DNA of 64,000 nt from Blasia pusilla. Its lineage: Eukaryota. Positions within the stretch are counted from its first letter, which is position 1. Each line of letters starts with the position of its first letter. The stretch lies in contig CM114271.1 in NCBI GenBank assembly GCA_050084515.1, forward strand, positions 40,176,001 to 40,240,000. Reading direction: 5' to 3'. A model generated the notes under the pieces. It ran no database searches. It was not told the origin of the DNA and saw only the letters and a program-made list of their open reading frames with translations. Positions 8,870 to 63,700 of the stretch are shown piece after piece. A program made the translations under genes and the position numbers.

Positions 8870-9272
8870 GAAAAAACTGTTTGGTGGAGAACACTAAGGT
8901 TTGCCGCCATAGCGTTAGATCGCTCGTCATAAGCCTCAATTGTTTTCATCCGAGTGCAAATGATGAGGGATTGCGGTGATTTTCATTCGAGCTTTTCCAC
9001 AGCTGCAAAACTGCAAGCTCCTTCCCATTCCTATCTCCGATCAGTTCACTTCTTACCTCTCACATCCGCTCCGGAACAGATTTTGAAGTCCAATTGTTTT
9101 CATTCAAGTGGAGAGGATTATTCTAAGTCATTCCGGCATCTCCAAAGTTGCAAAAGTGTAACCTTCTTACAATTCCTTTATGGTGTACTCGTTTACCACG
9201 ATCCTCAATAGCTTTCACTCGAGTAGAGATGATTCTGGATTGCATAGAGTTTCAATCACACCGTTTTCAAAC
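8870..9272 (+). repeat. 403-bp direct duplication, copy 1 (copy 2 at 10572-10974)
   Basis: Constant offset of 1702 bp; about 7 substitutions by eye; no TG..CA termini. Confidence 0.95.
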
Positions 9273-10571: not shown

Positions 10572-10974
10572 GAAAAAACTGTTTGGTGGAGAACACTAAG
10601 GTTTGCCGCCATAGCGTTAGGTCGTTCGTCATAAGCCTCAATTGTTTTCATCCGAGTGCAAATGATGAGGGATTGCGGTGATTTTCATTCGAGCTTTTCC
10701 ACAGCTGCAAAACTGCAAGCTCCTTCCCATTCCTATCTCCGATCAGTTCACTTCTTACCTCTCACATCCGCTCCGGAACAGATTTTGAAGTCCAATTGTT
10801 TTCATTCAAGTGGAGAGGATTATTCTAAGTCATTCAGGCATCTCCAAAGTTTCAAAAGTGTAACCTTCTTACAATTCCTTTGTGTTGTACTCGTTTACCA
10901 CGATCCTCAATAGCTTTCACTCGAGTAGAGATGATTCTGGATTGCATAGAGTTTCAATCAGACCGTTTTCAAAC
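10572..10974 (+). repeat. 403-bp direct duplication, copy 2
   Basis: Near-identical to 8870-9272. The duplicated spurious ORFs are 8954-9211 and 10656-10913. Confidence 0.95.
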
Positions 10975-11375
10975 ACCGATGTAGATTCAAGAGTAGAATT
11001 TTAGGCTGGGTGAGCCATTTTTGCTTTGATTTTATATCAGAAAGATGTCATGAGAAAAGCGGGAATTTGTGGTATGCATGTAGGCAAGCGAGTTGCCTCG
11101 GTGGGGAGGCCCCGATTTTGGGTTGATGAGGAACAACATCAGAGTGGGACGACGAGTGTTCGTGAGTTTGTTGCTGAAGGATAAGCTACGAGTGTCAGGA
11201 AGGAGAGGCTATAAGCACTTTAGGTCACACAGCCGTCGTGGGATGATCAAGACGGCTAGCTAGGGGTCTAGGGTTAGGTCATAGACGCACAAGTACTTGT
11301 GCATCTATGACCTAACCCTCGCATAATAGCCGGACAGCGCTGACGCGGGGTTATGATGTCGAGTGGCGCATAAGT

Positions 11376-12109
11376 TATCGTGCGTATACACATCGCTACA
11401 CAACATACATCGTTGTCACCGAACACACACACAAATACACACGATCCCATCTTAACTCATGGCATCCAAACAACGAGACAAGAAGTACCAAAATATCTCC
11501 AATTAAATCAAGATCTATGGTTCTTTCAACACCATAGCTCTCCAATGTGTGCACTCTCACATGTCTCTCTCAATGTCAAACCAAACCCACTCTCCTAATG
11601 AGAGGCTTGGATTACACACACAAGGCAAGCAAGACCATGGCTCCGCCGCCTCATTCCAAGAGGTTCAACAAAGAGAGAATGAGCTCTCAAGCTCTCTCTC
11701 CTTGAGGTATACCCCTCCCCTCTCAAGTCACCTCTTTGGCTCTTGACCTAATGTAAGAGGTCAAGGGCTACTTACCAAAAATATGAATTTGATCATATAC
11801 TCAAAATGGTACTTACCTAAAATAGTAAGTTTCTCAATATGGTTCGAAATGAGCCGAAACGAAGAGCAAACTTGCTCTCTCAGGTTTCGCGGGGCCTTAG
11901 CAGGTCATCCTTGATCTTCTGAGCCTATCCTCCACTACTTGCAAAGGTGCTCTACTCGATCTCACCGATCTATCCTAAAAGACATGATAGCTATCGTGCG
12001 CATATACATCGCTACTCAACATACATCGCTGTCACCAAACACACATACGATCCCATGCTAACTCATGGCATCCAAACAACAAGAAAAGAACTACCAAAAT
12101 ATCTCCAAT
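11376..12109 (-). repeat. 3' terminal repeat block B1-A2-B2 (B2 11376-11503, A2 11504-11989, B1 11992-12109)
   Basis: 11376-11503 matches 11992-12109, and 11504-11989 matches 20881-21366. The same arrangement recurs at 60797-61559. Confidence 0.9.
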
Positions 12110-12289
12110 CGCCCCCTACCTGGTGATTAGGTCCCTCTAACTCCACATAGCCATCTATCCCTACCTACTATGACATACATCTCTCGGACGCTACAAGTAA
12201 GAAGTCCGGATGCTCATGTGGCTCCATCGTTACTCGCCTTCTTGTCATCCATGTCCCAGACACAAGTCGAAATGTAGAACTACCTATTC

Positions 12290-13600
12290 TATGTACATCT
12301 GGGACACATCCATCATCCCTGAGGAACCCTAGTGAGAGGTGGCGTCAAGCATGCCATATGCCATCCTCTCGAACATCCATCACAGACTAGCATAATGGCT
12401 GCACCACGAGCACAACCACCCAACATATATCGCAAGCCTGTAAGAACTACTGCCAAGCTCGGATCAACTGTACCCTCAATGTTTGGAAGGTGATATGGCG
12501 CATAGTTAGGCACATGGTCCTTCCAAACCATACCATCGCGTCCCTCCAATAAGAGAACAACTGATGGAAAAACCTCACGCACTCTCAAGATGGTGTGCCC
12601 TGCAGTCACATCCAACGTCGTGGGTGTCGTCTGCTACAAGTAGACATAGTCTCCCTCATGAAACCTCCGGATAGTAGGTCGATAACCACTCCCCCTAATA
12701 GTTGTATACATCAATGTATCCCAATGTTGCGCAATTGCCAAGTTCTCAAACGCCATGGGCATCACTCTCCGGAACAACTCAACCCTCTATGAACATAATC
12801 TCATCCATACATCAGGGTCATCAAGGTTCAACACCTCACCAACATCTCGACAAATGGCCGTAGGAAACTTTAGCTCACGGCCATAAAGCAGCAAGTACGG
12901 TGAGAAAGACGCTAAGGATGCCTGCCTTTTGAATCTGTATCCCATCGCCAACCATGGCAACTGAAGGTCCCAATCTCCTCGGTGAAATCTCTACAAGCCA
13001 TACTTGCGCAATCCTCTCTTCATCGTGTGTACAACCCTCTCCGCTGATCCATCTGCCTCAAGATATCTCACGAAGTGGTGCGGTGGTCAATCAGTGCCTG
13101 ATCACACAAGGCTTGAAACTCCTCGCCAAACTCAATACCTTGATCTGTCAACACCTCAGTTGGTGCACCGTAATGACTCAGCACTCGATCAAGGAAGGCA
13201 TATACTACTCCCTCACTCACTTTTTGAGGCTATGCAACCAACTCTATCCAATTCGAGAAGTGCTCGACCATCACCAACACATAACGACTATTGCGCTCCA
13301 TCAAAGGCAAAGGTCCTCGAAAATCCAAACTCCATCTATAACCTATACCCATGATCGGGAGTGGATGCAACTGTGGAATCAGAACATTAAACAATGCTCG
13401 AACTTGATCATACACCATGCATCTGGCAACAAACTGTTGAATGTCAGTTTGTATGTCTCACCACCAATATTGAATCTCAAGCAAACTATACGTCTACTTC
13501 ACTCCAAAATGACTTGACTCCTCTTGGGCATGATGCACCAAATGTGCTCATTGCCAAGGATGAGGCACAACATGCACTCTACCATCCTCCCACACTCACA
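12290..13600 (-). pseudogene. DDE integrase with C-terminal PHD finger (element 1)
   Basis: ORF fragments 13230-13418 and 12313-12615. PHD reads ...[31 protein letters not shown]. Confidence 0.9.
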
Positions 13601-13637
13601 ACTCATGTGTCCCCTCCCACCGAAACCGTTTGGCTCG

Positions 13638-14990
13638 CTATAGGATCCGATCCCGCTCTCTAGCACCCACTATGCTCGCGATGCTGCCAGTACGCAGATA
13701 CTCCAAGACCACTCCATCGCCGTGAATATCTCGACCACCTGACGTCTCCTCACCGGCCTCTAGATCTAAGGACTCTCCATCAGACATCGCCATGGAAGCC
13801 TTAGCAATCTGGCTCTCCATAGCCAACAAGCCCAAATAGGCTGAAGAATGCCATCCTGGCACCAACTCCTCATCACTCTCACAATACCAACGAGCTTCAG
13901 TCACATCTCGCAGACTCGAGCATGGGTTACGGCTCAAACCAACTGCATCATGGTTGAGCGTCCTTGGTCTATGCACCACCTGGAAGTCATACTCGTGCAA
14001 CAAAAGATCCCACTTGGCAAGCTTCCCTGTAAGCTTGTGGGACTCCATTAACCACTTAAGTGGCTGATGATTTGTAATGATGGTAAAGGGATTGCCGAAT
14101 AGATAACACCTGAAATGTGCGAGTGCCCACACCGCAGCCAAGCACTCACCCTCATACGAGCTATACTTTGCCTTTGCAGCGATGTTTGAGCGACTTGCGT
14201 AAGCCACCACAAACTCTCTACCATCATTGTCATGTTGGGTGAGCACGGCTCCAAGCCCCAACATGCTCCAATCGACTCACATCTGTTGGGCATGTAATGC
14301 AGGAAATAGCCTCTACCTTTGTCTACTGCACACTAAGGCCCCCTAGATATATCGTTTGACCCAGGTACGCAATCTGGTCGTAGAAGAAATTGCACTTGTC
14401 TGGATGTAGCTTTAGCCCATGTAACAACAATCGTCGAAACACCTCCTCTAGATGTCGCTCATGCTCCTCAATTGTGGCGCTTAAGACTACGACGTCATCA
14501 ATATAACACCTACCAAAATCCAAATGTGCGAAGATCCTATCCTAAACCCTCTAAGACTCAACTAGGGCATTCTTTAACCCAAATGGTAAGAACCGCCACT
14601 AGTACAAACAATCCTTCCCGTGAGGATCGATGCCCCAAAATTCTATCTGCCGCCTATCCCCCAATTTGATAGGCATGTGATGGTATCCGGCTCGCAAATC
14701 CAATGAACTGAAGACCTTTGCATGCCCAATCGCATCAAAGATCTCCTCAGGGATGGGCATGGCATACCTACACTAAATCAGAGCCCTCTCCATGTTACTA
14801 TACCTATAGGGTCGTAGGAAGATTGCGTGTCACTCAACAACTCAATGCGGATCCCTTGACCCTTCACCATACCCAAATCTTTCATGCTAAATGCAAAAAA
14901 ACTCCTATAACTCCTCAAGAACTGATGTATGCGGCGCCGCTCTCCTCCTATCATCTTAGGGCCCATATCTGGCTCCCAAGTCTCCATCGT
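13638..14990 (-). pseudogene. Reverse transcriptase and RNase H (element 1)
   Basis: CYIDDVVV, LKLHPDKC, GLGAVL, VAYASR and YEGECLA, with stops and frameshifts. Part of the RT/RH connection appears deleted relative to element 2. Confidence 0.9.
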
Positions 14991-15339
14991 GACTATCGTA
15001 GGACTCTCTGGAGTAGGTGTAGATGGTTGCTATGGTGCAACCCCGTCTCCTACAATCAAACTCGAGTGCTCTCCTATATCCAAGTGCAAACTCTCATCTC
15101 CACGTGCACTACCCGGAACCACGCTCGATGCCATGGCTATCATCTCCTAAAGTACTTGCAAAACATCCCAATAAGTCCAAGGGTATCTCTCACGATCATC
15201 CTTGATGTGTTGATCTCCTCGAGTCTCGCCCCCAGCCACTGCCTCAACCGTCTCGGTAGGCATGGAGCTCACCAACGCAACAACTATGATATGTGGCATC
15301 CTCAAACAACGTTGCTCAACTACTCCTAAGCTGAAAATC

Positions 15340-16245
15340 CATGTCAAGCAGTTCACGTCCATCTCCTGACCCAGGACATGACGTCATAGTCAATACTCTG
15401 ATAGTGACAGTATTGTTGTCACTCCTATAGGGAATCACATCACTCGCTCTCGCTCATCGATGTTGGGCTCCACCAACCTCTGTACCTAGTCATCCCAAAC
15501 CAAGCCAGGTCCGGCCTCCTTGAAAGGCTGCTTGTGGCATGCGAATCCTGTTGACCACAGTCAACGGCGGTCGATCATCTTGCCTCACTGCCTATGATCG
15601 GAGACCTGGATCCAGAATGGAATCCACCAACAAATCAGAGGGGCGCTCCACTCTCGCATACGCCCTTCGCATAACCTCATCTGGCACCAAGTTGGTCCAC
15701 CAAAGACGCAGGCAGTGTGCTCTAGAACCTACACTCGCCGCATCCAAAAACACTTCCGAGCCCATCCATGCGTGCACTTGATGTACACTCGTCACCACGC
15801 GGGACCTCAAATCGCCCAAAATCAGCACATTCTCCAAAATGTATGCTAGAGAACGAGAATGATGCTCCTGCAAGTATCACAAAAATCCGCATCATCTCTG
15901 AAAACAACCTGGACCGAGTGTCACCTAACCCGGTATCCCGTCCAACACTCGACTGGCCCTGACATGGCCAATCAGCAATGACCAGATCTATGGTCCATAC
16001 CCACTCAAAGTCCTGCGGCCCCAACAATGAAATGTCCCTCGGAAGGGAACTCCAGTAATGAATGGCAGACGTAGAAAACAAGTCGAGAAAACATAGGCAT
16101 AAATGTGTCACATGGTGACGTGAAGCGCGCCTTGCAATATCATCAATCTCCACATACAGGTATTGTTGCACGCGCACTCCAGCCTGCAAAACAACAGCTA
16201 ACCAAGTGCTGATCCCTCTAAAGAGACCCAACACCCGAATATCCT
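15340..16245 (-). pseudogene. DNMT3-like C5 cytosine DNA methyltransferase catalytic domain inside the retrotransposon pol region
   Basis: Motifs in canonical order: I RVLGLFRGI, II YVEID, IV DLVIADWPCQG, VI YILENV, VIII DAASVGSRAHCLRLWWTNL, IX ERERVM*FPIG.T, X RHVLGQEMD. One frameshift near 15880 and a few stops. Confidence 0.9.
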
Positions 16246-16844
16246 CTTCTAGGATGCACCACATAATCCGGGTGGTGTCCAAAGGGTTCATTGCAGCACT
16301 CATGGCTACCTGGGGTTCCTCGGACCCGTCACACTCTGATGCAAACGTCTCACTCCACGCGGTCTACACATGCTCAGTGGCTAAGCGTCAAAGTTTCTCA
16401 GTCGAGCCCCAAAGTGGCATCTCTCCTCCACGGACTGATGCGGCTACCATGACACTGCTCTCCATAGAAATGTCAGGAACAGGAGTATCCTTTGCATGGA
16501 CATGTCCCTCAATCAAATCACTAGGCCAAGTGATGGCATTGCTAAATGTTGCTAAGGTCGCCATCTCTCATGGCCGTCGCTCGATCACTGGACCTGTGAA
16601 TCTAACGATTAATAAGTTAAGGGCCCATCACTTGACTGCCATCCTGGTCTGTAGGAAGTTGACTCCTCCCAATAATCCAAGAAAAACCCCATCAGATATA
16701 ACACTGCTCCACCAACCAAGACGTCATAGGACTCTGAATCAATCACTATCGCCTTGGCTCGCACCACGGACTTATCTGTAGGATGTCCCAGGCGAATCCT
16801 TACCATGACCTCATGTCGGGTGATATATTGTGTGGTACTCGCTC

Positions 16845-17000
16845 AACGAGAATTAATTATTGGAGATAGATAGACAGACAAGTAAAACAGCAATAGCCAT
16901 TGATACTATTTTGAATCAAAAAGGTCAAAATGTAATATGTGTTTATGTAGCTATTGGTCAAAAACCTTCTTCTGTAGCTCAAGTAGTTAATACGTTTGAA
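16845..17000 (+). pseudogene. atpA: Nuclear plastid DNA (NUPT): fragment of chloroplast ATP synthase CF1 alpha
   Basis: AT-rich insert translating [51 protein letters not shown] (Walker A region). A 4-bp TAGA duplication shifts the frame. Confidence 0.95.
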
Positions 17001-20000
17001 CATCCAAAGATGTCTGTATCCGGAATGGACAATGCTCCATATCGGCTCTCGTCAAGCCCAATCCTCTGAATGTCGCTTTCCCCAATATGAGGGGTTGCGC
17101 TCCTAAATCCAACACAACACGCTGCAGACTAAAAGCTCTACCTCCGGGACTCACCAATTGGAAGACCTCTCCCCCGTTATCCAGCAACACAATACTAGGA
17201 GAAGCCATGGCACGCTCTATCGCACGACTAGTGGGCATCTCCGCCATCCTAGCAGCCGCAGCTTGACATGAATCTGACGTGGACGGCCCGAGCATCCGCT
17301 CTAAGGGTAGGTCCATCACCTCCTCTGCAATCACCTTTGAATGTGATGCATGAACTCCAACTCCACGCTCACGTAGCATAGCGACCAGCCGAAATACCTC
17401 GGCAGGCGTACCTCCCAATGTCATAACATCGGAAAATATCGGAGCACGGTACACCATCGTGGTTGCCCCCAACATCGTACTCGATACATACTTCTCCTAA
17501 GCATCAGCAATATGAGTCGTCACACTCATTTCTCCCATTGCCTCATTATGCCTGCACACCAATAACATAACCAACTCTTTGGGAACTCTGATCAGGATCC
17601 ATCGATGGGGTCCTCATCGCCTCGGACAACGTGAAAGATTGAGGAAGACCGGTCTATTTCCTGGCTTTCCCTCGCTATGGATCCAACTCTACGGCTGCTC
17701 CACATATCATAATTGCGGCAGCCTCTATCTGGGCAACCTTGCACATCCAACCAGGATCCTCCATATCTCTAGCTCCTCCATATGATGTCGATGCCACGGA
17801 TCCAGCATCGGGTAAACTCAATGCCATAGCGGCAATCTGCTCCTGTAGCTGCTGTATCTTAGCATCCATCCCAGCCTCATGCCCGGCATCTCCCTCGACG
17901 CGTCTAGGTGGTGGGACTCTACCTCCTCCACATGCAACTTCACCACCCTGTCAGGTAATTCCAACTCCTCGTTTCCCAACGAGACAACATGGTGCACGAC
18001 CTCTAGGCCCACTCGGACCGGCTACTCACTCTGATGCCCTCTCTGGCCCTCGGTCCGGACGTAACTCAGTGTGTAAACTAAAACACCTGATGCATGTGTG
18101 ACCATACCTCTGATAATAGTCACACTAATAACCTCTTAGTGTAGCACTATCTCCTCCTTCATGCTGAGGCACACGTCCATGACCCTCACGAGTGCAATCA
18201 CGTTGATCATGGGCTCCACTACATGACCAACAAGTAATCGTAGGCGGCTGTTGTTGAGCCGCATATGAAGAAGCAGGTCTCTATGTAATGGTCTCCCGGT
18301 ATCCTCCCTAAGCTCGTGGTGCCACAATCAACCTATCTAGGAGTCCACGTTGCTGCAGTGGTGATGCAGGCAATCGTGACTGCTCTCGCCCAGAACCCAT
18401 GGTGGCTACGCTCTCCTCCACCATGTTGTGCTCAATATTCTTGGCGGTCCTAAAAACATCTCTAAACGTAGGTGAGGTGTTCATAAGAAGTATCCCCTCC
18501 CCCACCCGTGTCCGCAGGGTCCGATCAAGCATCGCATATCATGATTGGATAGCATGAGCCTCTGTCAACCCCTGAGTGACGTTGATCAATCGACGCAAGA
18601 AAGTGTAAGCCTCATGCAATCTCTCACTCGGGCGCCTCTAGAAGTCATGGATGCTCCACAATTTCTCCGTCCATACCCTCTGGTAGCTCGCCCTCAACTC
18701 AGCGAAGAACTCAACCACGAGGTTGCACCTAGGACGAACTCGACTGGACGGTGCAACTACTCCAGTGTGAGTTACCCCTCCTAAAATATCACGTGCGGAA
18801 GAGGAAGTAGCCTCTCCTGACTCTTCCTCCTCATCTGGGAACGGCTCCGTCCATGACACATAGTGTGGGTCATACTAGAGTGGCCATGCCTCAATCTCTT
18901 GGGCATATCTGTGGGAGAACTCATGGTAATCGTCCATGGGCGCCCCCTCTAAATGCTGGAACATACCGTTCCATGTTGTAAACTAGTTGAACTCTCTAGA
19001 GTTCCTAGCCTGTTGTGAGTCGCGCCAACTCCTAAACTCGATGATGAAGTCGTGCAACTCTATCGTACCTACTGCACCTGAGAACCTACGCGGTCTTCTA
19101 CCATGGTCGTCCATCTCGTACGCCCAAGCAATAGGACTACTCAATATGAGTGGCAAAGCACTAAATTCCTCTACGCCCTCCTCCTCATTTGAAGATGACA
19201 TAGAAGGATGTCGAGGTGGTCCCGCATGTGGATACCCTCGAAACCTCGCGCCACTCCACGTAAATCCTCTAGAGCTACGCTCTAGGATTCCGTGATGACC
19301 CTTGTTCCCCTCTCACACAATCACTCTCAACCTTGCGTGTAATCACGCAATCACTCAATCTAACATACGGCACTCAAGCTACACTCTCTCATCAAGACGT
19401 GTGTTGTGCGGTAACAAGCAGCGTGATGCTGCAAATCAACTGATATATAGTCTCATCGATAAACCATCCTCAACTCTGGACATCCCACACAAGTCTTTGT
19501 TCCCTCAACCCATTTGTCATCTATGCTCTCAGCGTCAGCACGAAACCCAATATCCCAAATAACTTCCCAATACCCGGAATTCCCTCACACTTGCACGGTA
19601 AGAGACCAGAATGGGTAACCTGACAATAATGTCAATGTCGCTCCTTGGCAACTGTAAATCTCGACCCCAACTCGGTCGTGCAGATAACTCCTCCAATAAG
19701 CAAGTTGTAATCTTGTACTGACGTTGCTCAAACCTCCTAAATATTTAGTGCAAATCCAATGGTACGGTGCGACATTGGCGACACGGAACGGCACTCGATA
19801 ATGGGATGCAGCACTCCACGGCATACCCTCCTCAATCAGCAATACACATGCTCTGCTCCTTAGTGAAGGAGCGGCTCCGCGATCGAGACAATACGGTGCG
19901 TCCACAAGCAGCACGACGCGGCAATCGGCGGCGCATTGTAGCTACGCACGTCACGACACGGTACTCGATCGTCCTTGAGTGGCTACCAATCACAACATAG

Positions 20001-20880
20001 CAGAATGAAATGAAAACTCAAACACCGTGACCCAAGGTCGCCTGCCATCATTGGTTGATCACGAAATTGCGATGATGGTGGCATCCAAAACAAAGTATGT
20101 GGTGGTGGCGCAAGTTAGAGAATCAACGGTCATCGTGGAAGACCCTCCACTCCGTAATGGTGGCAATGGCAACCAAGGGTGGACAACGGCCGAACGTAGC
20201 TCTCAGTAGCGCTAGGCGGCGGCGGCCGACGGTGGCCCGTGGACCATTGACGATGACGACGGACCGTTGATGGTGACGGTTGACCGTTGACGATGACTAT
20301 GACCGCAACAGCTGCCGCCGCTGCCACTGATTTAGGGTTTGAACAATTTTACCATACAAATCGCCTTGCAATAAAAATTTTGCAAGATTGACCATAAAAT
20401 TTTGCTCGCAACTATAAATTATGCACTATTTGTTGCACAATGTGCACAGGTTTATGATCTACGACGATGTCAAAAAATATTTTGAATCGTACATTCGAGT
20501 AAAAACTGACGGGGACTGTCGTAAAGCCCAATGTCTCTTTCTCCTACACAAAATTTGGCAGCGCTTCCGCGCTGTGCACTGATTTCTCCCAAAAAAATTG
20601 TAAAACGTGTGAAAATACAAATCAACAAGCTACATGGTGCTCCCGAGAGCACCATGTAGGGGAAATTGGCTCCCATACTCAATCCCTATCAAAAATTGGA
20701 CAGCGCTTCCGCACGCCACTCTTTCACACGAAAAATCGGCAAAGGAAACATAAGCTCTCCAGCTCTGGTGAGCACTCCCATGAACCATTGAATGGGGAAT
20801 ACGATCCCCAACCTGCAAAACCAGTGAGTGACCAGCGAGCTCCCCCATGAAACTCTCTCACTCATCTCATTCTCTCTTTG

Positions 20881-21366
20881 TAAATCAAGATCCAAACTCT
20901 CTCAACACCATAGCTCTCAATGTGTGCACTCTCACATGTCTCTCTGAATATCAAACCAAACCCACTCTCCTAATGAGAGGCTTGGATTACACACAAGGCA
21001 AGCAAGACCATGGCTCCGCCGCCTCATGCCAAGAGGTTCAACAAAAAGAGAATGAGCTCTCAAGCTCTCTCTCCTTAAGGTATACCCCTCACCTCTTCCA
21101 AGCTCTCTCCATGGTAACCTATGCTCCCAAGTCACCTCTTTGGCTCTTGACCTGATATAAGAGGTCAAGGGCCATTTACCAAAAATAGAAAGTCGACCAT
21201 ATATTCAAAATAATACTTCCCTAAAATAGTAAGTTTCTCAATATGACTCCAAATGAGCCGAAACGAAGGGGTCTCAACAAGCTATCCCCGACCTCCTTAG
21301 TCTGTCCTCCACTACTCGCAAAGGCACTCAACTAGATCTCACCGATCTATCCTAAAAGACGTGACA
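20881..21366 (-). repeat. 5' terminal repeat A1 of element 1
   Basis: Matches 11504-11989 and ~60925-61442; ends GACGTGACA on the + strand; has no B segment. Confidence 0.9.
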
Positions 21367-24300
21367 AGGTATAGGATGGAAATATGGGCCATACTTTGAG
21401 CCACGCTAGCTAGTCACCAAAATAACTGCAAGTCCGAGTAGACATAAAGAGCCAGTTGCGAGGGCTTTGCTGGTGATCGGGTGCGGAAGAAGCCATTATG
21501 GCTCCAAGGAGACATGGCAAGTGGTGAGCATGGTCACACAGGGCGGCGCACTTGCTAGCAAATGGAACTACTAAGCCAGAGATGGAGAGAGCTGAAAGGA
21601 GTTCATGACAAAGGGCGCGCATGAGGAGGTCCTTGGGGGAGGGTGCAAAGCAAGGAAGGAGCCAGGTAGGGGTTTCTCATAGGGAGGTGAGGCAGAAGTT
21701 TCATTTTACAACCCTCATAACTAAATGAGTGCCTAGCAAAATATCATAACTCTAGTTCGCTCACTCTAGGATGATTTGCGCATTGGTGAGGTCTCTTGGT
21801 AGAGACGCAAGAGACACAAGAGATGAGAAGCGAACAAGGTTGAGAATTTCATGTGTGTTTATGGTCTTGACTAGGAAACGTGAACCAAGGCTTGAGAGGA
21901 GTCGAGTCTAGGAAGAGTGGTTTCCAAAGTGGTGAGAACCGGATTTGGAACATGACCAATATGTGGGGTTTTGACTATATTTTGGACCATAACTTTTAGT
22001 CTTGAGATGCATTTGGGATAAATAATGTGGCATTGGAAGGCTAATGCAAATCGAATTTCAATGCTCTAAAGATCTCAGAAAACACACGAGCAAAGGATGA
22101 GAAACTTCCCAAAAACCACTTTACACAACTTCCCGTAAAGTTGTTTTTGGGAAGTTTTTCATCCTTTGGTACCCAACTTGTGTACCACAAGTTGGGTATG
22201 TTGTGGGCCAAAAATAGGGGTTCGAACGTCTTTTCCCAAAGGATAGGGGAGGGGGAAGAAGCCTAGAAGTACTAGTAAGGGGGAAGGTCTCAAAGACTGC
22301 TTGGGACTCAAACCCCACTTTGGAGCACCGCAAGGAGCCCAAGGGCACGGAATGGATCAAGAGCTTGGCGTTGGGACTCGAAACCCAAACCAAGTCCAAT
22401 AGAGTAGATTTTAGAGGTCCCCATTGGATTCCAACTCACGATTCATTTAGTTTGGTCTCAATTTGGGGCTCATGCAATGTTCATTAGATAGTTGGGATCG
22501 CTAGGCGTGCGAATGTCGTTTTAGGTGGTTGGACTAACCAAAAAGTGTGTCCCAAGTCTCAAAAGAGTTGCTCGTGTTGGGAAGTGAGGAACTAGGAAGA
22601 TTGAGCTCAATGAGGTGCCGAGTTGAGAATTCAGTGAGTTGGAAGGTTGATTGACTCAGACCTGACTAATGTAAGTGTGTTTGGGTGCAGATCAGAAGTG
22701 AGAGCATGTCCTACTGAACGTACGCTTCCGCAACACGAAAGATTGATGTTCAAAAGGAGTAGGTGCACAATATTTCAGTTTGGTCTAAGGAACGAGGACG
22801 GGGTTATAGGTATAAAGGAGCTATGGAGAGACGTATACACGGGCTTGTAAGGGCTACACGTAGGGACGGGGGGAGCCACTAAAGCTCCAAGGAACTATGG
22901 AGTTACAAAGGTATCTATAGCTACATCTGGAGGAGAATGAACTGCGCAGGGCTAGGAATAGCCATGAGTTGAGTAGACGTCGGACGGGGGGACACCGACA
23001 TCATAGGGTGGCCAACCCACAAGCAGGTTTAGTTGGGGCTAAGTGCGGAGACAGTAGTCGGGCTGTGGGGACCCCTCTTGCATAGGGCACTTTGCATGTA
23101 CCAGTATGGACGCAAGGAGCCAAGCTACAGGGGCGGATTTGGGTAAGGAAAATCGAGGTCGAGCGGTGACTACGGTAGGGAGGCGGATGGGGTAGAGGCA
23201 ATGCATGGTTTGCCGCACTACCAGGTTAGAATGATGGACATGGTAAGCACGCTAACCGTGGTATGCGGCTATGAGGTTAAGCGGTTAAGCGGTTAAGATA
23301 GTTAGGCATTGGACGTGGTAGGTTGGATCGGAGGTAGTTGGTGATTGGAGAGCTACATGGTTGGTGGGAGTTGCAACTTTTTGGACAAGTAGGAGGTATT
23401 TTGTGACTTGGTATTATGGAGCGAGATTGTGATTACATTAGTGGCGAGATTTGCTAGCCATTTTGAGTCGTTGACAGAGACCCAATTTACTAGCACCATG
23501 CGGACTGGGAGCAGGATGGGTGATCCGCACCAAGGGTATGCTATGGAGTGCTAGAGGTGGAGACACATGCACCGCCACTAACAGGTAATCTACATCTGTT
23601 GACGGGAGGTTGGACGTGCTACTCGAGGAGATTTTCGTGCCATGGAGGTTGTTGCACCACATGGATCAATCAATGTTGACCATGGAGTAGAATGATGGCA
23701 GGGATGCCCATGTTACCCATCAAAGTCCTTTTTCCCGCACTTTTCTTTTGTCATTGAGGGTGTTGGGTATCATGTAGTAGCTTAGTCTAGATGGGTGTAG
23801 CAATGGTGACGAGTGTAGACTCCTTGCATGTGTCGCATATTTGTGGACATAGGGCGGTTTCTCGAGTAGGGGTAGTGTATATGACCCGAAAGAGTGCAAG
23901 TAGCTTAGGTGAGCTTGGTCAAGAGGCTCAGGGTGAGTCCGAGTCTTAAGTGTGCATGAGGTCGGATGTGCCATCACGGGATTATCATTAGCATAGGTGA
24001 GCTAGTGAGGAGTGTGGAAGACTCTCGTTGAGTTTGAGTGCTTGAGCGTGTGAGATAGGGTTGTCTTCATGGTGTTCTTCGAAGGTTTGGAAGAACGGGG
24101 TAGTTTGAGTAGTGGTAGTGGAGTAACACAAAGTGGAGTGAGTATCAAGGAATTTAGAGTGAGGAACCCTCCTCCCCGGCGGACTCCTGTCAATGGTTGG
24201 ATTGTCATCACTATACAACAAGTTTGGTGACAAGATTGTAGACGGAGATAGTGTTACGTGGGGGGAGATGGACAACATGAACCATTTGGGCATGTGTCAT

Positions 24301-44959: not shown

Positions 44960-45115
44960 ATATCTCTTATAGGGGAAATTTTGGAAGAGGGCCAAGGGAA
45001 AGAGAGGATATACCTTAAGAAGAGAGTTCAAGAGCTCATTATCTCTTTGTTGAACCTCTCTGCATGAAGCAGTGAAGTTATGGTACTCATTGCCTTGTGA
45101 GTAACCCAAGCCTCT
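44960..45115 (+). repeat. Diverged fragment of the A-type terminal repeat of the DNMT-Gypsy family
   Basis: Reverse complement of the GAGGCTTGGATTAC...GAGGTTCAACAAAGAGA.AATGAGCTCT...TTAAGGTATA segment of 20881-21366. Confidence 0.7.
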
Positions 45116-51490: not shown

Positions 51491-54400
51491 ATGGCGGGTG
51501 CGGTGAAGAGTATTGGGCTCCCATGGGTTCACTCAGGTGTAGTATGTACGGGATGCCAAGTCAATCCTATCACCGGCTATCGTTACAAGTGCGAAACGTA
51601 TGTATTCTCAATCTTCATCCAATTGAATCCAACAATCAATGTCCATCCAATCCTTGAAACTCAGATGACAGCAAGTTCTCGTGCCGATGCCTTTCCATTC
51701 TGTTCTCAAGTTCCCAGCCAGTTGTCTGTTTCATGCCAGAGTGGGTTGACACCTTACAGCCGCATCTTTTCTTGGTTCTATTCGATGCAGCTGCGTGGAA
51801 CATGACTTGTGCGAGAAATGCTTTCGCTTGGGTCATGCACAGATGGGACATAAGTTCCTGCGGATAGCGAGGGATAGTAATAATTTTCACCCTCCCTTTC
51901 AAGTGTACTATATCGTGTGCGATGAGTGTGGACAAGGACCAATCGAAGGAAGACGATACCTTCATAAGTGGTGAGTGTTTCCTGATCTTGATCACTCCCT
52001 ATTAGGCCAGGCTTTGAATTAAAGACGTATTGAGATGAAGCCTGTGCTACTTCCTCACCCTACGATTATAGAATTCAGGACGGCGTTTGTCGTGATCGCC
52101 AATGTTTAGACTACAGGCGTCTATCTGTGTCCAGGAACTCATCTCGGATCTGACAAGAAATCTCGACTGTGCATAGGCGTCCCAACTACAATCTCTGCAA
52201 CGGCTGCTTCACTAGACTGCAAAGGCCAGGCTTTGACGCCAGTAGGGAGTTTGAGGCTATTGATGAAGTCAAGATACAAACAATTTTCCCTACGCATATT
52301 CCGGTTTATCACTTTCACAAGCAGTGTGGGTCTTGTGGCATCACTCCAATATGTGGACCTCGTTTTGATTCACTCGTGTACGTAAGCTATGACACTCATT
52401 CACCTGCCATGCTCCGTGTCGACCGTGCGATGTGTTGGACTCATGATGGTGGGAAAGCGAAACGCTATCTCATGTTCTGATGCGTGGTGGAGTGCAGATA
52501 TATGGACTACTCGCTTTGTTTGGTATGTTTTGATACAAAATTTGTCAAGAGAGCCATAAAAAATGATGACTACATCAGAATCGAGCGTCCAGAGCCGGTC
52601 AGAGTTCGTCAAATTGCTGTCTATTCGTGTATGAGCTGTGGAGATGCACCAATTTGTGGGCCTGCTTATGTTCACCAACGGTCAGTGGACCCAAAAATCC
52701 GCCCAAGTATTCTCTTTATTTCTTTATTTTGTTGGCTGATTGTCTAAAAGCGTGATTCTCTTCCGTGACTTCGCTAAGCATAGGTCAAAGATCTTAGCCA
52801 TGAGCTGAGCAGAAACACATTTTGAAATTCTGCCTTCCACGTTTCCTCTGTTATGGACAGGTTACCCGAAAAGATATACTGTATTCTTTGCTACATGAAC
52901 GTCCCGCGTCAGTTTGAGTACAGCAGAGTTGAGGCACCTTCTCAATTTGGTGAACCGCCTGCTCCTGCTTTTGCACGACAAACTCCACTTGTAACGGGAG
53001 GATCAGTACGACATGAAGATTATGAGAACCTCGCTCAGAAATTTGAGTTGTACAGGAAGGAGAAGGAAGAGAAGGAGGAAGCAGCAAGAGTGGTAGCAAA
53101 GAAGTATATGGAGCTCACTGAAAAATTTGAGCAGTATCAGCAGAGAGCGCAAGGGAGTGGGAGTTTTAGACAGCAAGAGCTTGTTGCTAAAGAGCACGAG
53201 AAATATATGAGTGAAATCGAGGCACTGAAGAAGCAAAAGGATGATGATGCTGAGTATGCTACTAGAATCTATGTTAGTCGCATTGAAGCTTTGGAGGCAA
53301 TTGTGGCAGAGAAGGAAGCAGCCGTGAGAAAAACTGAAGCAACTTATGCAGCACTTAACGAGGAATTGGAGAAGCTGAATTCCCAAGAGAAAGGGAAAAC
53401 GACTGAGTCTAACAGCCTCGCTAGAGTAAAATCTGTTGATGGAGAGAGGGCAGAAACAAAAGCATCAGACTCGAGCCTCTCCCTAGAATTTGAGAAGTTG
53501 AAAATGCAGCTCTTGTCTGTAACTCAAGAGCTTGAGAAGTCCAAAGAGAGGGAAGAGGAAATGAGAACGATTGCAGTCAAGCATAATGAGCTTGTTGAGG
53601 AACACTTGAATCTCACTGAGGAATTTGACACAATAAAAAAGGAGAAGGAAGTAGCGGAAAGAAATTGTGAGCAGAAGTCCACAGATTATACAGCTCTGAA
53701 GGAAGAAGTAGCGAGGCTGAAGTTGGAAAAAGAAGAAGCTGTGGAATATGCCAGTCTTGCAAAAGAATTGGACTCACTAGATGTAGGGAAGGAGGAAACA
53801 GTGACTGCAGAGAAGTACACCAGCCTCTCTTCAGAATTTGAGAAGCTTAAAAAGGAGCACACAATTCTTACTCAGGAATTTGAGAATTTCAAAGAGGAGG
53901 TGGAAGAGATATCAAGGAGGAATGGTAAGAAATACGATGACCTCATGAGAGAGCACTTGAGCCTGACCAGTGACTTCAATACGTTGAAGGAAGAGAAGGA
54001 AGAGGTGGTACAAGTGCATGCGCAACAACATATGAGCCATCAGAAGGAGATCTTATGCCATAAAGAGGAGAAGGAAGAGGTCGTGCAACAATTAGAAGAA
54101 AAATACACAATCCTGGAGGAGGAGTTGTCTCGGCACAAGGAAGAGAAGGAAGAGGCAATACGGGTCCATGCAGAGAAAAATGCAAGCCTTGAGGAGGAAC
54201 TCTTAATCTGTAAAAAAGAGAAGGAAGAAGATGCTAAAATGCTTGCAAAATTTCAGGAAGAAAATGAGAAACGGAAAGATGAAGCAGTAGAGTGGGCTGA
54301 CCTCATTGAACAGTTCCAGGGTGTGATCAAAGACAAGGAAGCAGTCGCAGCAGAGCTTGACATGAGAGTAAAAGAGTTGGAACAGCTGGTGGTGGAGAAG

Positions 54401-55837
54401 GAGGCAGATGTTGAAAGGAAGGCAAATGATTACGTAGTTATTTATGATGAATTTGATGCCTTACATAAGGAGTATGACAAATTGCGAAGAGAGATGGAGC
54501 TTTCTATGCGGACAAATGAAGAGAGGTATGAGAATCTGAAGTTGGACTTCGAGAAGTATAGGGAAGATAAGGAAGCGGCGGAGAAAGAGTGGGCACAAGA
54601 ATGTGATAACGAGAGAAGAAAAGCTGCAGAGTTTGCCAGTAATGTTAAGGATTTGCAAGTGAAGGAGGAAGAAGGGAACTGGTATGTTGCCAAGGTTGCG
54701 GAGTTGGAAGGATTGTTGAAGGAGAAGGAAATAGGCATGAAGACTCAGTTGGAAGATCATGAACATCTTGTACAAGAATTGGAAGGACTGAAGAAGGATT
54801 TGGAAAAGTCTGAAGAAACTGCAAGAGTTAGCAGACGTGAGTTTTTGGACCTTTCTGAGGACTTTGGCAATTATAAAGAGGAGATCGAGGGAGAGATGAA
54901 AGCTAGAGCTGAGGAACATGCAAAACTTCTCCAAGAAAATGAGGAAGTGAAGAATGAAAATGCTCAGCTTATTGACGACATAAATAGTTTGGAAGAGTCA
55001 CTGAAGGAGACAGAAGCGGCAATAGAAAGTAGTGCAGCAGCTTACGCATTGGCTGTAAAGGAGGTTGAGGTTTTGAAGGAAGGGTTGGAAATTTGGGAGG
55101 AAGAGAAGAGAATGGCAGCAGCAGACCATTCTGTTGCTATTCAAGAACTAGAAACAGAAGTGAAAAGGTTGGAGAAGTTGGTACTTGAGAAGGAAGAGGT
55201 AGCAAGAGCGATTTCAGAAAAATTCTCAATTCTCTCAGTGGAGTTTGAGAGGTACAAGAAGGAGAAAATAGCAGAGGTGGAAGAGTCTAGCTTGAGTAGG
55301 CAACTGTATGCAAACCTAGCTCAGAACCTTGACAAGTCTAAGAAAGATAAAATTGCAGGGGGCAAAGTGAACATGGAGGACTTCAAAAGGCTTCAGATAG
55401 AAAATGAGGAACTGAAGGAAGAAATTCAGAGTGTGAAGGAAGATTTTGATGAGCTCTTCCCAAAATATCGAAATCTTTGTCAATCAAAGGTTACCAAGGA
55501 TGACTATGAGCGTGTTAAGACAGAACTAGAGAAGCTGAAAGCCAGCGTGCTCGACATTCCTGGTGTTGGTAAATGTGCCACCGCCGCGATTTGCACATAT
55601 GGAGTCATTGTGGAAAAGAAGAAAGTGGCTCTGGAAGAAGGCTTACAAAAGTCTCGTCTTCAGACAAAAGACCAAGACATCCTGCGGCAATCTGTAGAGT
55701 TTATGAATGATGCAGTCAAAGACCTTGACAGAGAGTTTTCCAACTTCATGGAGGAAGTTATTCCTGTCACTGATGAAGAGGCCGAAGAATTTTTCTTGAC
55801 CATGAACATTGAGACCGCTGGAGAAGCATCAAAATAA
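51491..55837 (+). CDS. Protein with four ZZ-type zinc-finger(-like) units and a long acidic coiled coil (~1215 aa, 5 exons)
   Basis: Exons 51491-51597, 51791-51970, 52177-52377, 52498-52680 and 52861-55837 splice in frame. First unit is HSGVVCTGCQVNPITGYRYKCETCVEHDLCEKC..H..H (canonical ZZ). The last exon is an open, E/K-rich heptad region of ~990 codons. Confidence 0.88.
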
Positions 55838-59240: not shown

Positions 59241-60097
59241 GAACTCATTTTTATATTATGAAGTAATGAATGAATATCCTATTTCACTATTCAAAAGACT
59301 CAATATGATGCACATATTAGAATCCATAAAAAGTGGGAAAGGAAACATTCTCACCATAAAAGGATAGGGAAAAAAGTGAATGACATAATTTTCCTTGTCC
59401 TTACATTTTATGCACTTTTTGACAACAAGATGGCAGGTAAGAGGGCTTAGAAGTTTAACCAAAAGGGAAAACACAATCCTCTTTTACCATAAAAATGAAA
59501 GGCCACTAAAAAGTGAAAATAGTAGAACTCATTTTTATATTATGAAGTAATGAATGAATATCCTATTTCACTATTCGAAAGACTCAATATTATGCACATA
59601 TTAGAATCCATAAAAAGTGGGAAAGGAAACATTCTCACCATAAAAGGATAGGGAAAAAAGTGAATGACATAATTTTCCTTGTCCTTACATTTTATGCACT
59701 TTTTGACAACAAGATGGTAGGTAAGAGGGCTTAGAAGTTTAGTCAAAAGGAAAAACACAATCCTTTTTTACCATAAAAATGAAAAGGCCACTAAAAAGTG
59801 AAAATAGTAGAACTCATTTTTATATTATGAAGTAATGAATGAATATCCTATTTCACTATTCGAAAGACTCAATATTATGCACATATTAGAATCCATAAAA
59901 AGTGGGAAAGGAAACATTCTCACCATAAAAGGATAGGGGAAAAAGTGAATGACATAATTTTCCTTGTCCTTACATTTTATGCACTTTTTGACAACAAGAT
60001 GGTAGGTAAGAGGGCTTAGAAGTTTAGTCAAAAGGAAAAACACAATCCTTTTTTACCATAAAAATGAAAAGGCCACTAAAAAGTGAAAATAGTAGAA
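59241..60097. repeat. Tandem repeat, 3 x 284-285 bp
   Basis: Units start at 59241, 59525 and 59810; units 2 and 3 are almost identical. Confidence 0.97.
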
Positions 60098-60796: not shown

Positions 60797-63700
60797 TGTT
60801 GTGCGCATATACATCGCTACACAACATACATCGTTGTCACCAAACACACACACAAACACACACGATCTCATGCTTACTCATGGCATCCAAACAACGAGAC
60901 AAGAAGTACCAAAATATCTCCAATTAAAACAAGGTGAAATCTCTCTCACAACACCATATCATCTCACATGTGTGCACTCTCACATGTCTCTCTCAATATC
61001 AAACCAAACCCACTCTCCTAATGAGAGGCTTGGATTACATTCACAAGGCAAGGGACCATAGATCCGCCGCCTCTTGCCAAGAGGTTCAACAAAGAAAGAA
61101 TGAGCTCTCAAGCTCTCTCTCCTTGAGGTATATCCCTCCCCTCTCCCAAGCTCTCTCCATGGTAACCTATGCTCCCAAGTCATCTCCTTGGCTCTTGACC
61201 TGATGTAGGAGATCAAGGGCCACTTCCCAAAATATAATTTTGACCATATACTCAAAACAATACATACCTAAAATAGTAAGTTCCTCAATATGGCTCCAAA
61301 TGAGCCGAAACGAAGGGGAAACCTGCTCTCTCTCTGGTTTCTCGGGGCCTGAGCAGGTCATCCTCGACCTCTTGAGCATATCCTCTACTACTCGCGAAGG
61401 CGCTCTACTAGATCTCACTGATCTATCCTAAAAGATGTGACAATTGTCGTGTGCATACACATCGCTACACAACATATATCGTTGTCACCAAACACACGCA
61501 CGATCCCATGCTAACTCATGGCATCCAAACAATGAGACAAGTACCAAAATATCTCCAATCGCCCCCCTAGTTGGTGGTTAGGTCCCTCTAACTCCAGATA
61601 GCCATCTATTCCTACCAACCATGACATACATCTCTTGGACGCTACGAGCAAAAAGGCCGAGTGCTCATGTGGCCCCATTGTTAGTCACCTCCTTGTCATC
61701 CATGTCACAGACACAAGTCGGAAGCTAAAACTACCTAGTCTATGTACATCTAGGATACATCCATTGTCCGTGAGGAACCCTAGTGAGAGGTGGCGTCAAA
61801 CATGCCATATGCCATCCTCTCGAACATCCATCATAGACTAGCATAGTGGCTGCACCACGGGTGGAACCACACAACATACATCGCAAGCATGCAGGAACAA
61901 CTGCTAAGCTCGGATCAACTATATCGTCAATGTTTGGAAGATGACATGGGGCACAATTACGCACATGGTCCTTCCAAACCATACCATCGCGTCCCTTCAA
62001 TAAGAGAACACCGGATGGCAAAATCTCACGCACTCTCAAGATGGTGCGCCCTGCATTCATATCCAATGTCGTGGATGCCGTCTGCTGCAAGTAGACATAA
62101 TCTCCTTGATGAAACCTCTGGATAGTAGGTCGATAACCACCTCCCGGTATAGTTGCATATCTCAATGTATCTCGATGCTGCGCAATCGCCAAGTTCTCAA
62201 ATGCCATGGGCATCACTCTTCGAAACAATTCAGCCCTCTGAGAACATGCTCGCATCCATACATCAAGGTCATCAAGGTTCAACATCTCACCAACATCTCG
62301 ACGAATGGCCACAGGTAAATCTGGCTCTCGGCCATACAAAAGCAAGTACGGTGAGAAAGACGCTAAGGATTCCTGCTTGTTGAATCTGTATCCCATTGCT
62401 AACCACGGAAATTGGAAGTCCCAATCTCCTAGATGACTTCTCTGCAAGCCATATTTGCGTAATTCTCTCTTCACCGTCTGCACAACCCCCTCCGCTAGTC
62501 CATCCGCCTCAAGATGATCTCGCGAAGTAGTACGGTGGTCGATGAGTGTCTGATCACCCAAGGCTTGAAACTCCTCGCGGAACTATGTATCTTGTTCTGT
62601 CAACACCTCAGCTGGTGCGCCGTAATGACTCAACACCCGATCTAAGAAGGCATACGCTACTTCCTCACTCGCTTTATCACGCAATGCAACCAACTCTATC
62701 CACTTGGAGAAGTGCTCAACCATCACCAACACATAACGACTATGGCGCTCTGTCAAAGGTAAAGGTCTTGCAAAATCCAAACTCTATCAATAACCTAAAC
62801 GCGTGATCAGAAGTGGATGAAATTGTGGAGTTGGAGCATTGAACGATGCCAAGACTCGATCACACACCACGCATCTTGCAACAAAGTGCTACATGTCAAT
62901 CTGCATGCCTCGCCACCAATACTGAATTTGGAGCAAGCTATACATCCGCTTCACTCCATAATGACCCAACTCCTCATTGGCATGACGCACCAAATGTGCT
63001 CTCTATAAAGGATGAGGCACTACACGCACTCTACCATCCTTCCATACTCAAAACATATGTGTCCCCTCCCACCAGAACCATCTGGCTCGCTGTAGGATCC
63101 AATCTTGCTCTCTAGCTCCCACTATGCTCGCAACGCTGCTAGTACGCAAGTACTCCAAGACTACTCCATCATCGTGAATATCTCGGCCATCTGTCGTCTC
63201 CTCATCGGCCTCTGGATCTAAGGACTCTCCATCAAATCTTGCCATCAAAGTCTCAACAACCTGGCTCTCCATAGCCAAAAAGCCCAAATAGGCTGACACG
63301 TGCCATCTTGGCACCAACTCCTCATCACTCTCTCCATGCCAACGAGCTCCAGTCGCATCTTGCTAACTCGGGCATAGGTTACGGCTCAAACCAACTGCAT
63401 CATGGTTGAGCATCCGAGGTCTATGCACCACTTGGAAGTCATACTCGTGCAACAAAAGAGCCCACCTCACGAGCTTCCTTGTAAGCTTGTCGGACTCCAT
63501 CAACCACTTAAATGGAAAATGATCAATAATGATGGTAAAGGGATTTTGGAATAGATAACATCCGAAATGTGCAACAACCCACACTGCAGCCAAGCACTCA
63601 TCCTCAAACGAGCTATACTTTGCCTCTGCAGCGTTTTTTGAGCAACTAGCGTAAGCCACCATGAACTCTCTACCATCATCGTCATGCTGAGTGAGCACGA

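Follow-up and report, generated by a model that had tools for sequence, protein, structure and literature searches.

The stretch of Blasia pusilla DNA analyzed here (64,000 nucleotides, hereafter the window) contains an element of the minus strand whose terminal regions are assembled from two repeats, X and Y. Comparison of the window with itself gave lengths of about 120–128 bp for Y and about 487–515 bp for X; in both window copies, which represent one family, Y ends in GACA, X starts with TGTC, and a palindromic joint (j) sits between them. The features of the two copies are as follows.

11376–21366, minus strand: whole element, X1-coding-Y1-GC-X2-Y2, ~10 kb, with ends TGTC..GATA (decayed GACA)
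21367–21370 (ACCT) and 11372–11375 (ACTT): target-site duplication (TSD) of 4 bp, with one C>T
20881–21366, minus strand: X1, the 5′ terminal repeat (U3 part, R, U5), with no Y after it
21041–21056, minus strand: predicted self-primer segment in X1, complement of the primer-binding site; second copy in X2 at 11668–11683
20866–20881, minus strand: primer-binding site (PBS), complementary to the X segment
15725–16363, minus strand: C5 cytosine methyltransferase domain within pol, decayed (PF00145, E 1.7e-5)
14299–14808, minus strand: reverse transcriptase, with stops (PF00078, E 7e-23)
13641–14276, minus strand: RNase H (PF17917, E 7.7e-30)
13071–13640, minus strand: integrase zinc-binding domain and DDE core, with stops (PF17921, E 4.3e-10; PF00665, E 2.5e-12)
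12280–12400, minus strand, approximate coordinates: C-terminal PHD finger, from the translation (PF00628, E 1e-6 on the second copy)
12110–12121, minus strand: polypurine tract (PPT), abutting Y1 directly
11992–12109, minus strand: Y1, internal copy of the right-end segment
11986–11995, no strand assigned: internal palindromic joint with spacer 11990–11991, right and left integration ends fused; putative integrase attachment site
11504–11989, minus strand: X2, internal copy of the left-end segment
11500–11507, minus strand: X2/Y2 seam at 11503/11504, putative end-to-end cDNA joint
11376–11503, minus strand: Y2, the terminal right-end segment
60797–64000, minus strand: second copy, 3′ part only, running off the window, with PPT near 61560, Y1 at 61445–61559, joint at 61439–61448, X2 at 60925–61442 and Y2 at 60797–60924

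All coding domains of the window element (methyltransferase, reverse transcriptase, RNase H, DDE integrase, and PHD finger) are decayed, and gag and protease, expected upstream, gave no Pfam match in the frames scanned. An AT-rich insertion of ~170 bp (about 16840–17000) breaks the putative protease region. A second stem-loop lies right after the PBS (about 20820–20865, minus strand, from the fold of the matching L265 stretch) and is possibly a packaging or priming aid. A fragment at 45006–45115 was traced back to the same X/Y element family. Elsewhere in the window lie an open frame of 1,003 codons with weak coiled-coil-type matches only (Takusan, SMC; 52826–55834, plus strand), a 403-bp direct repeat of 98% identity without TG..CA ends (8870–9272 and 10572–10974; a recent duplication or a small element), three tandem units of ~285 bp at 97–98% identity (59241–60097), and a PIF1 helicase fragment (PF05970; 30144–33431, minus strand) that is probably a decayed Helitron.

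By its enzymes the element is of the Ty3/Gypsy type, with reverse transcriptase, RNase H, and DDE integrase in that order, TG..CA ends, and a 4-bp TSD. The pol of a relative, database protein P0017, is nearest to Ty3 among solved structures. No tyrosine recombinase was matched in the segments scanned or in P0017, an rve integrase being found instead; the idea in an earlier note on this DNA that the joint may be a recombination template of the DIRS/Ngaro type is not supported, the enzyme being a DDE integrase with 4-bp TSDs. At the C terminus a chromodomain is absent and a PHD finger stands in its place. The closest named homologue of the integrase–PHD part is a Marchantia protein (75%), followed by Calypogeia, Klebsormidium, and several chlorophytes. 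The C5 methyltransferase (PF00145) inside the Gypsy-type pol recurs in database proteins P0017, P0059, and P0080, and such a combination was known earlier from Klebsormidium (PMC5890265). A search of viral contigs gave one weak match. Troyka was ruled out as an identity for the element, having different ends and a 3-bp TSD (PMC12440569).

The joint reads GATAGCTATC at 11986–11995 and GACAATTGTC at 61439–61448, as previously described. An ancestral form GACAGCTGTC, proposed to have decayed at CAG/CTG, is borne out by the copies, which depart from it 103 times in all; C>T or G>A changes at the four CAG/CTG positions make up 80 of these, and GACAGCTGTC itself is found literally in 9 of 68 copies. 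The further proposal that the joint consists of the two integration termini abutted over a 2-bp spacer was upheld in 68 of 70 distinct PPT-preceded Y copies, a set in which 30 of the source loci were chosen by a junction query; of the two exceptions, one has a 7-bp spacer and one is without X. Among 30 loci chosen by their PHD region, the spacer was 2 bp in 26 and 7 bp in one, and X was missing in three. Spacer dinucleotides among the 68 were GC (24), AC (19), GT (12), AT (7), and others (6). Genome-wide, the exact PPT-Y-junction-X pattern gave 761 matches and its reversed control none; a junction query of the 390-Mb genome returned ~4,800 first-look candidates. A random spacer is ruled out by the constancy of its length, and nesting of a solo LTR is ruled out by the TSD, which flanks the whole unit and is found nowhere around the inner X-Y. 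With both of these accounts failing, the joint is a real feature of the element.

Two equal terminal LTRs are absent from this family, the 5′ end carrying X alone and the 3′ end Y-j-X-Y. The 3′ ends of 30 copies chosen by their PHD region comprised Y-j-X-Y in 25, Y-j with a broken X in two, and a stop at Y1 in three. Among 30 copies chosen by the 5′ part of their internal region, the 5′ end was X alone, with Y between X and the internal region in 0/30 and Y-j directly before X likewise in 0/30. The integrated ends are TG..CA, and a 4-bp TSD around the whole unit was exact in 13 of 18 evaluable elements, carried one mismatch in four, and was lacking in one. The 40 upstream stretches examined yielded 17 evaluable full elements and two of the form X-coding-Y, the remainder being without a usable 5′ end. 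X-coding-Y insertions have a TSD (exact in L053/L109, one mismatch in L037/L095) and no internal junction; they could represent one-LTR circles, cuts at both palindromes, or recombination between Y1 and Y2. Solo X-Y units with a TSD are also present in the genome. Within elements, X1 and X2, and likewise Y1 and Y2, are alike from end to end, with no majority difference in either repeat (15 elements), and the X copies are mostly 2–4% apart within an element as compared to 7% between elements.

The joint extends to relatives in metagenomes, whose integrases are 46–70% identical and whose X and Y differ in length and sequence. From a set of 80 loci, six were left out for too little downstream DNA and 16 more for having <560 nt; the palindrome was present in 26 of the remaining 58, several of these loci being one insertion, against 0.011 expected per locus, and the motif was not found in the other 32 loci. 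Two complete relatives have 4-bp TSDs (L207 exact, L222 with one mismatch).

The PPT abuts Y1 and thus stands 130 bp before TG, unlike the canonical adjacency of PPT and TG. At the other end of the internal region, the 16 bases that follow X1 can pair with a segment ~340 bp into X, at least 14 of the 16 doing so in 27 of 30 copies. Complementarity of 10–16 nt is kept, in unrelated sequences, in four other families (L207/L210, L222, L194, L223), and in L222 a TATA box is located ~30 nt upstream. The RNA of Tf1 starts at its own complementary segment and primes reverse transcription itself, and the PBS here is, as judged from the pairing, a self-priming site of this type. The primer stem-loop folds modestly better than shuffled sequences (z −1.79). 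Self-complementarity explains the PBS; a scan of the window gave no tRNA genes, a result without bearing on this point. Self-priming has been described as well for plant Tcn1 elements, in which the PBS complements an LTR segment and not a tRNA (PMC6317226).

In three RNA runs from one study, sense transcription was detected along the length of the family. RNA depth drops inside X2 from 111–250 to 37–45, the last bin being subject to edge effects, and no sharp 5′ or 3′ RNA end was listed in the three runs; the drop may hint at RNA ending in X2. Reads of the same runs link the pre-PPT region of L265 to mid-X (9114 to 98), skipping PPT, Y, and palindrome, as would a deleted copy or a splice.

With the PPT right before Y and the self-primer site right after X1, reverse transcription should yield LTRs of the form Y-palindrome-X. 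The repeat copied in each cycle would then be Y-j-X, from PPT to PBS, in agreement with the end-to-end likeness of X1 to X2 and of Y1 to Y2. Since the palindrome does not vary in length and is located downstream of the PPT, it is copied from RNA. Of the suggestion that the joint templates both ends or marks a circular intermediate, one part stands: the joint most likely supplies both ends of the element but is not itself a newly ligated circle junction. The likeness to a fresh 2-LTR junction is likewise lost, as the palindrome is fixed in length and the variable joint is the seam between X and Y.

Among 80 seams, TTT/ATT was found in 42, TTTA/ATT in 31, and other states in seven, with both main states in all three subfamilies. 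On a tree that is itself poorly resolved, seam state gave 20 changes versus 23 when shuffled, a slight lean toward clustering that was not significant (53/500 shuffles as low); an adjacent subfamily motif clustered on the same tree (0/500 shuffles as low). Remnants of the PBS/primer occur at the seam in 25 genome matches, some with further filler, and remnants of the PPT in 17, of which four are identical; one seam carries both kinds. Inspected remnants lay in full Y1-j-X2-remnant-Y2 ends in four of 10 PBS cases and in two PPT cases, and deletion between X1 and Y2 thus cannot explain them. In L292 and L287 the remnant extends beyond the PBS by 3–6 nt that match the complement of X, which would be expected if the RNA primer itself had been copied; two other remnants continue like the internal region instead.

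Filler of other origin was also observed at seams. That of L022 contains 2.5 units of what we take to be the plant telomere repeat, and L232, from another family, has similar filler. Of 12 inspected matches to the telomere pattern, five were ordinary PPT variants (L274, L276, L277, L279, L280) and one (L283) had no element match; single TTTAGGG units may be an X end plus a PPT remnant. In the insertion L275, which has an exact TSD and none of the 3′ half, X1 is followed by 560 nt of internal DNA, then by an inverted piece, and lastly by telomere-like filler and Y. This Y most plausibly represents the segment situated to the left of X1 in the cDNA; alternatively, a later deletion ending exactly at Y could have left it there. 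L075 and L103, considered as truncated cDNAs joined to Y, were ambiguous and were excluded from the evidence. Together with the seam states, the remnants strongly indicate that the newly made end-to-end cDNA joint is the seam at 11503/11504 and not the palindrome.

It is likely that these elements store their integration ends fused within the element, that the ends of the cDNA (the start of Y and the end of X) are joined, and that integrase cuts the palindrome after CA. RNA starting at the self-primer segment would prime itself, as does that of Tf1 and as the primer remnants suggest, giving a linear cDNA of the form Y0-j0-X1-coding-Y1-j1-X2. The end of X2 would be joined imprecisely to the start of Y0, a step to which the seams strongly point. 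Staggered cutting of each strand at GACA^GC would leave recessed CA-3′OH ends and 5′ overhangs of 2 nt; cuts of this kind require a palindromic 2-bp spacer. Strand transfer would then yield X1-coding-Y1-j1-X2-Y0, the arrangement of the observed element. The integration ends thus likely differ from the cDNA ends.

Only j0 is used, and j1 essentially never alone. The sequence X/Y-palindrome-X, left uncut, has three matches, as compared to 1,076 for X/Y and 761 for PPT-Y-j-X, and the permuted form X-Y-j-X-coding-Y was found at 0/30 5′ ends, none of three inspected pattern matches being a clean permuted element. A sealed circle with two near-equivalent palindromes should give the permuted form, so its absence requires an extra asymmetry in the model; with j1 essentially unused, the choice of j0 would have to be made before or during sealing. 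A guess that we favor is loading of integrase close to the left end of the cDNA, j0 being 128 bp away from an end and j1 about 515 bp. In L264 (with L271), L263, and L262, which are rare cases, X/Y is followed by an uncut palindrome and then by X. The L264 element, which begins at X position 203 and stops at X position 384, resembles a circle opened by some means other than integrase. Retention of circle-type sequence in L264 and L263 tilts the balance slightly toward a circle, and sealing before cutting, i.e., through a 2-LTR circle, is weakly favored over the reverse order.

The reverse order, in which j0 is cut in the linear cDNA and the chromosome break between X2 and Y0 is closed by host end-joining with no free circle, is a credible though less probable account. 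It predicts the same product and the same seam scars, host enzymes had access to a free end, as the telomere-like filler and the deletions show, and the preference for j0 is easier to explain because linear DNA is asymmetric. However, L264 and L263 keep X/Y followed by an uncut palindrome and X, as in a sealed circle (two to three cases), and a chromosome break would be risked at every insertion. Somewhat unlikely, in our estimation, is that reverse transcriptase makes the seam, the plus-strand 3′ end jumping to the far minus-strand end and copying Y a third time, with the resulting branch marking j0. End-to-end template jumping is known of reverse transcriptases, blunt joining or a single shared A is seen in 73 of 80 seams, and the strict use of j0 would be explained, but telomere-like and mixed-origin fillers indicate that at least some seams involved host repair.

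Copying after the manner of PAT/Ngaro elements, with RNA entering Y2, the seam inherited, and the palindrome acting only as the template for both ends of a linear cDNA, would yield no permuted form, as observed, and would account for the A-coding-B-A-B layout that DIRS-type elements share (PMC5890265). This account is nevertheless already largely refuted and very improbable: primer and PPT remnants occur at the seam, seam state does not follow the tree, the positions of PPT and PBS make Y-j-X the copied repeat, and in L275 a Y is present although the 3′ half is gone. That solo LTRs were nested by chance, or that the arrangement is an artefact, is scarcely conceivable against a spacer fixed in 68/70 copies, 761 genome matches, a TSD around the whole unit only, and a layout repeated in other families.

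According to textbook accounts of LTR replication, integrase inserts the very ends that reverse transcriptase has made, and 2-LTR circles are mostly seen as dead ends. In the reading that we prefer, of stored ends released by cleavage of the palindrome after the cDNA ends are joined, the two kinds of end occupy different sites, and every cycle appears to include end-joining. This is likely a new replication variant of Ty3/Gypsy-type elements. Whether circle junctions can be genuine precursors of integration could thereby be put to the test in a natural system that has recorded hundreds of events per genome, and whose seams document the removal of primer and PPT, as well as host repair, to the single base. 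Tentatively, and with slightly less than even confidence, we extend it to a PHD-finger Ty3/Gypsy clade (chlorophytes, Klebsormidium, bryophytes, and possibly Gypsy-7a_cRei, which is active in the laboratory), for which a 2-LTR circle would be obligate, the integrase attachment site would have left the cDNA ends for U3 as an inherited palindrome, and circle cleavage, which in retroviruses is a contested side path, would be the sole entry. LTR finders that demand equal LTRs with TG..CA (PMC6317226) should miss such elements, abundant as they are here, and the clade may consequently be absent from plant reference sets.

With Ty3/Gypsy elements (Metaviridae), the present family shares the order of reverse transcriptase, RNase H, and integrase, the DDE integrase, TG..CA ends, a 4-bp TSD, and solo repeats with a TSD. 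It differs in that the 5′ repeat is without Y, the PPT lies 130 bp upstream of TG, the repeat that is copied (Y-j-X) and the one that is integrated (X-Y) are circular permutations of each other, and the cDNA ends are apparently not the integration ends. As in Tf1/Sushi and the Tcn1 chromoviruses, the PBS complements a segment internal to the LTR and not a tRNA (PMC6317226), whereas a PHD finger replaces the chromodomain and an internal attachment site is proposed. In IS3 circle junctions, too, two ends abut across a short spacer and are opened for insertion by a DDE enzyme; the transposase remakes the junction in each cycle. Unlike the present element, which has a reverse transcriptase, the IS3 family consists of DNA transposons without one.

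Two green-lineage elements could be compared by description only: KnitGypsy-Dnmt3 of Klebsormidium likewise has a Gypsy pol with a C5 methyltransferase (PMC5890265), and Gypsy-7a_cRei of Chlamydomonas has a PHD finger and a left LTR lacking the final 8 bp of its right counterpart (PMC9940879). The accessible parts of these reports describe no internal junction or mechanism for either. No element combining a DDE integrase with either split repeats or an internal attachment site was found in the literature searched (Repbase reports, the Craig 2021 thesis, and subscription papers aside), in which the legend on Gypsy-7a_cRei (PMC9940879) is the nearest hint; the anatomy may have been annotated before. 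The split direct repeats A-coding-B-A-B, with an internal copy of the end junction, are shared with PAT, Ngaro, and SymbioDIRS elements (PMC5890265). The present family differs from these in its DDE integrase, 4-bp TSD, standard PPT, and self-priming, and its layout thus converges on the split repeats of PAT/Ngaro with a different enzyme.

Seams of retroviral 2-LTR circles carry scars of PBS and PPT type, as does the X/Y seam here. The circles of foamy virus, of HIV-1, and of the Panganiban–Temin model also share the CA-NN-TG palindrome, which in foamy virus is cleavable by integrase, the palindromic LTR-LTR junction being cut after CA to leave a 5′ AT overhang (PMC1180852). Such circles are usually described as dead ends, according to the same foamy virus study (PMC1180852), and those of HIV-1 can feed integration as a reserve (PMC4372172). 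In retroviruses, however, the palindrome is the ligated seam and belongs to a side route, whereas the Blasia elements inherit the palindrome, have their seam at a different site, and appear to depend on end-joining as an obligatory step.
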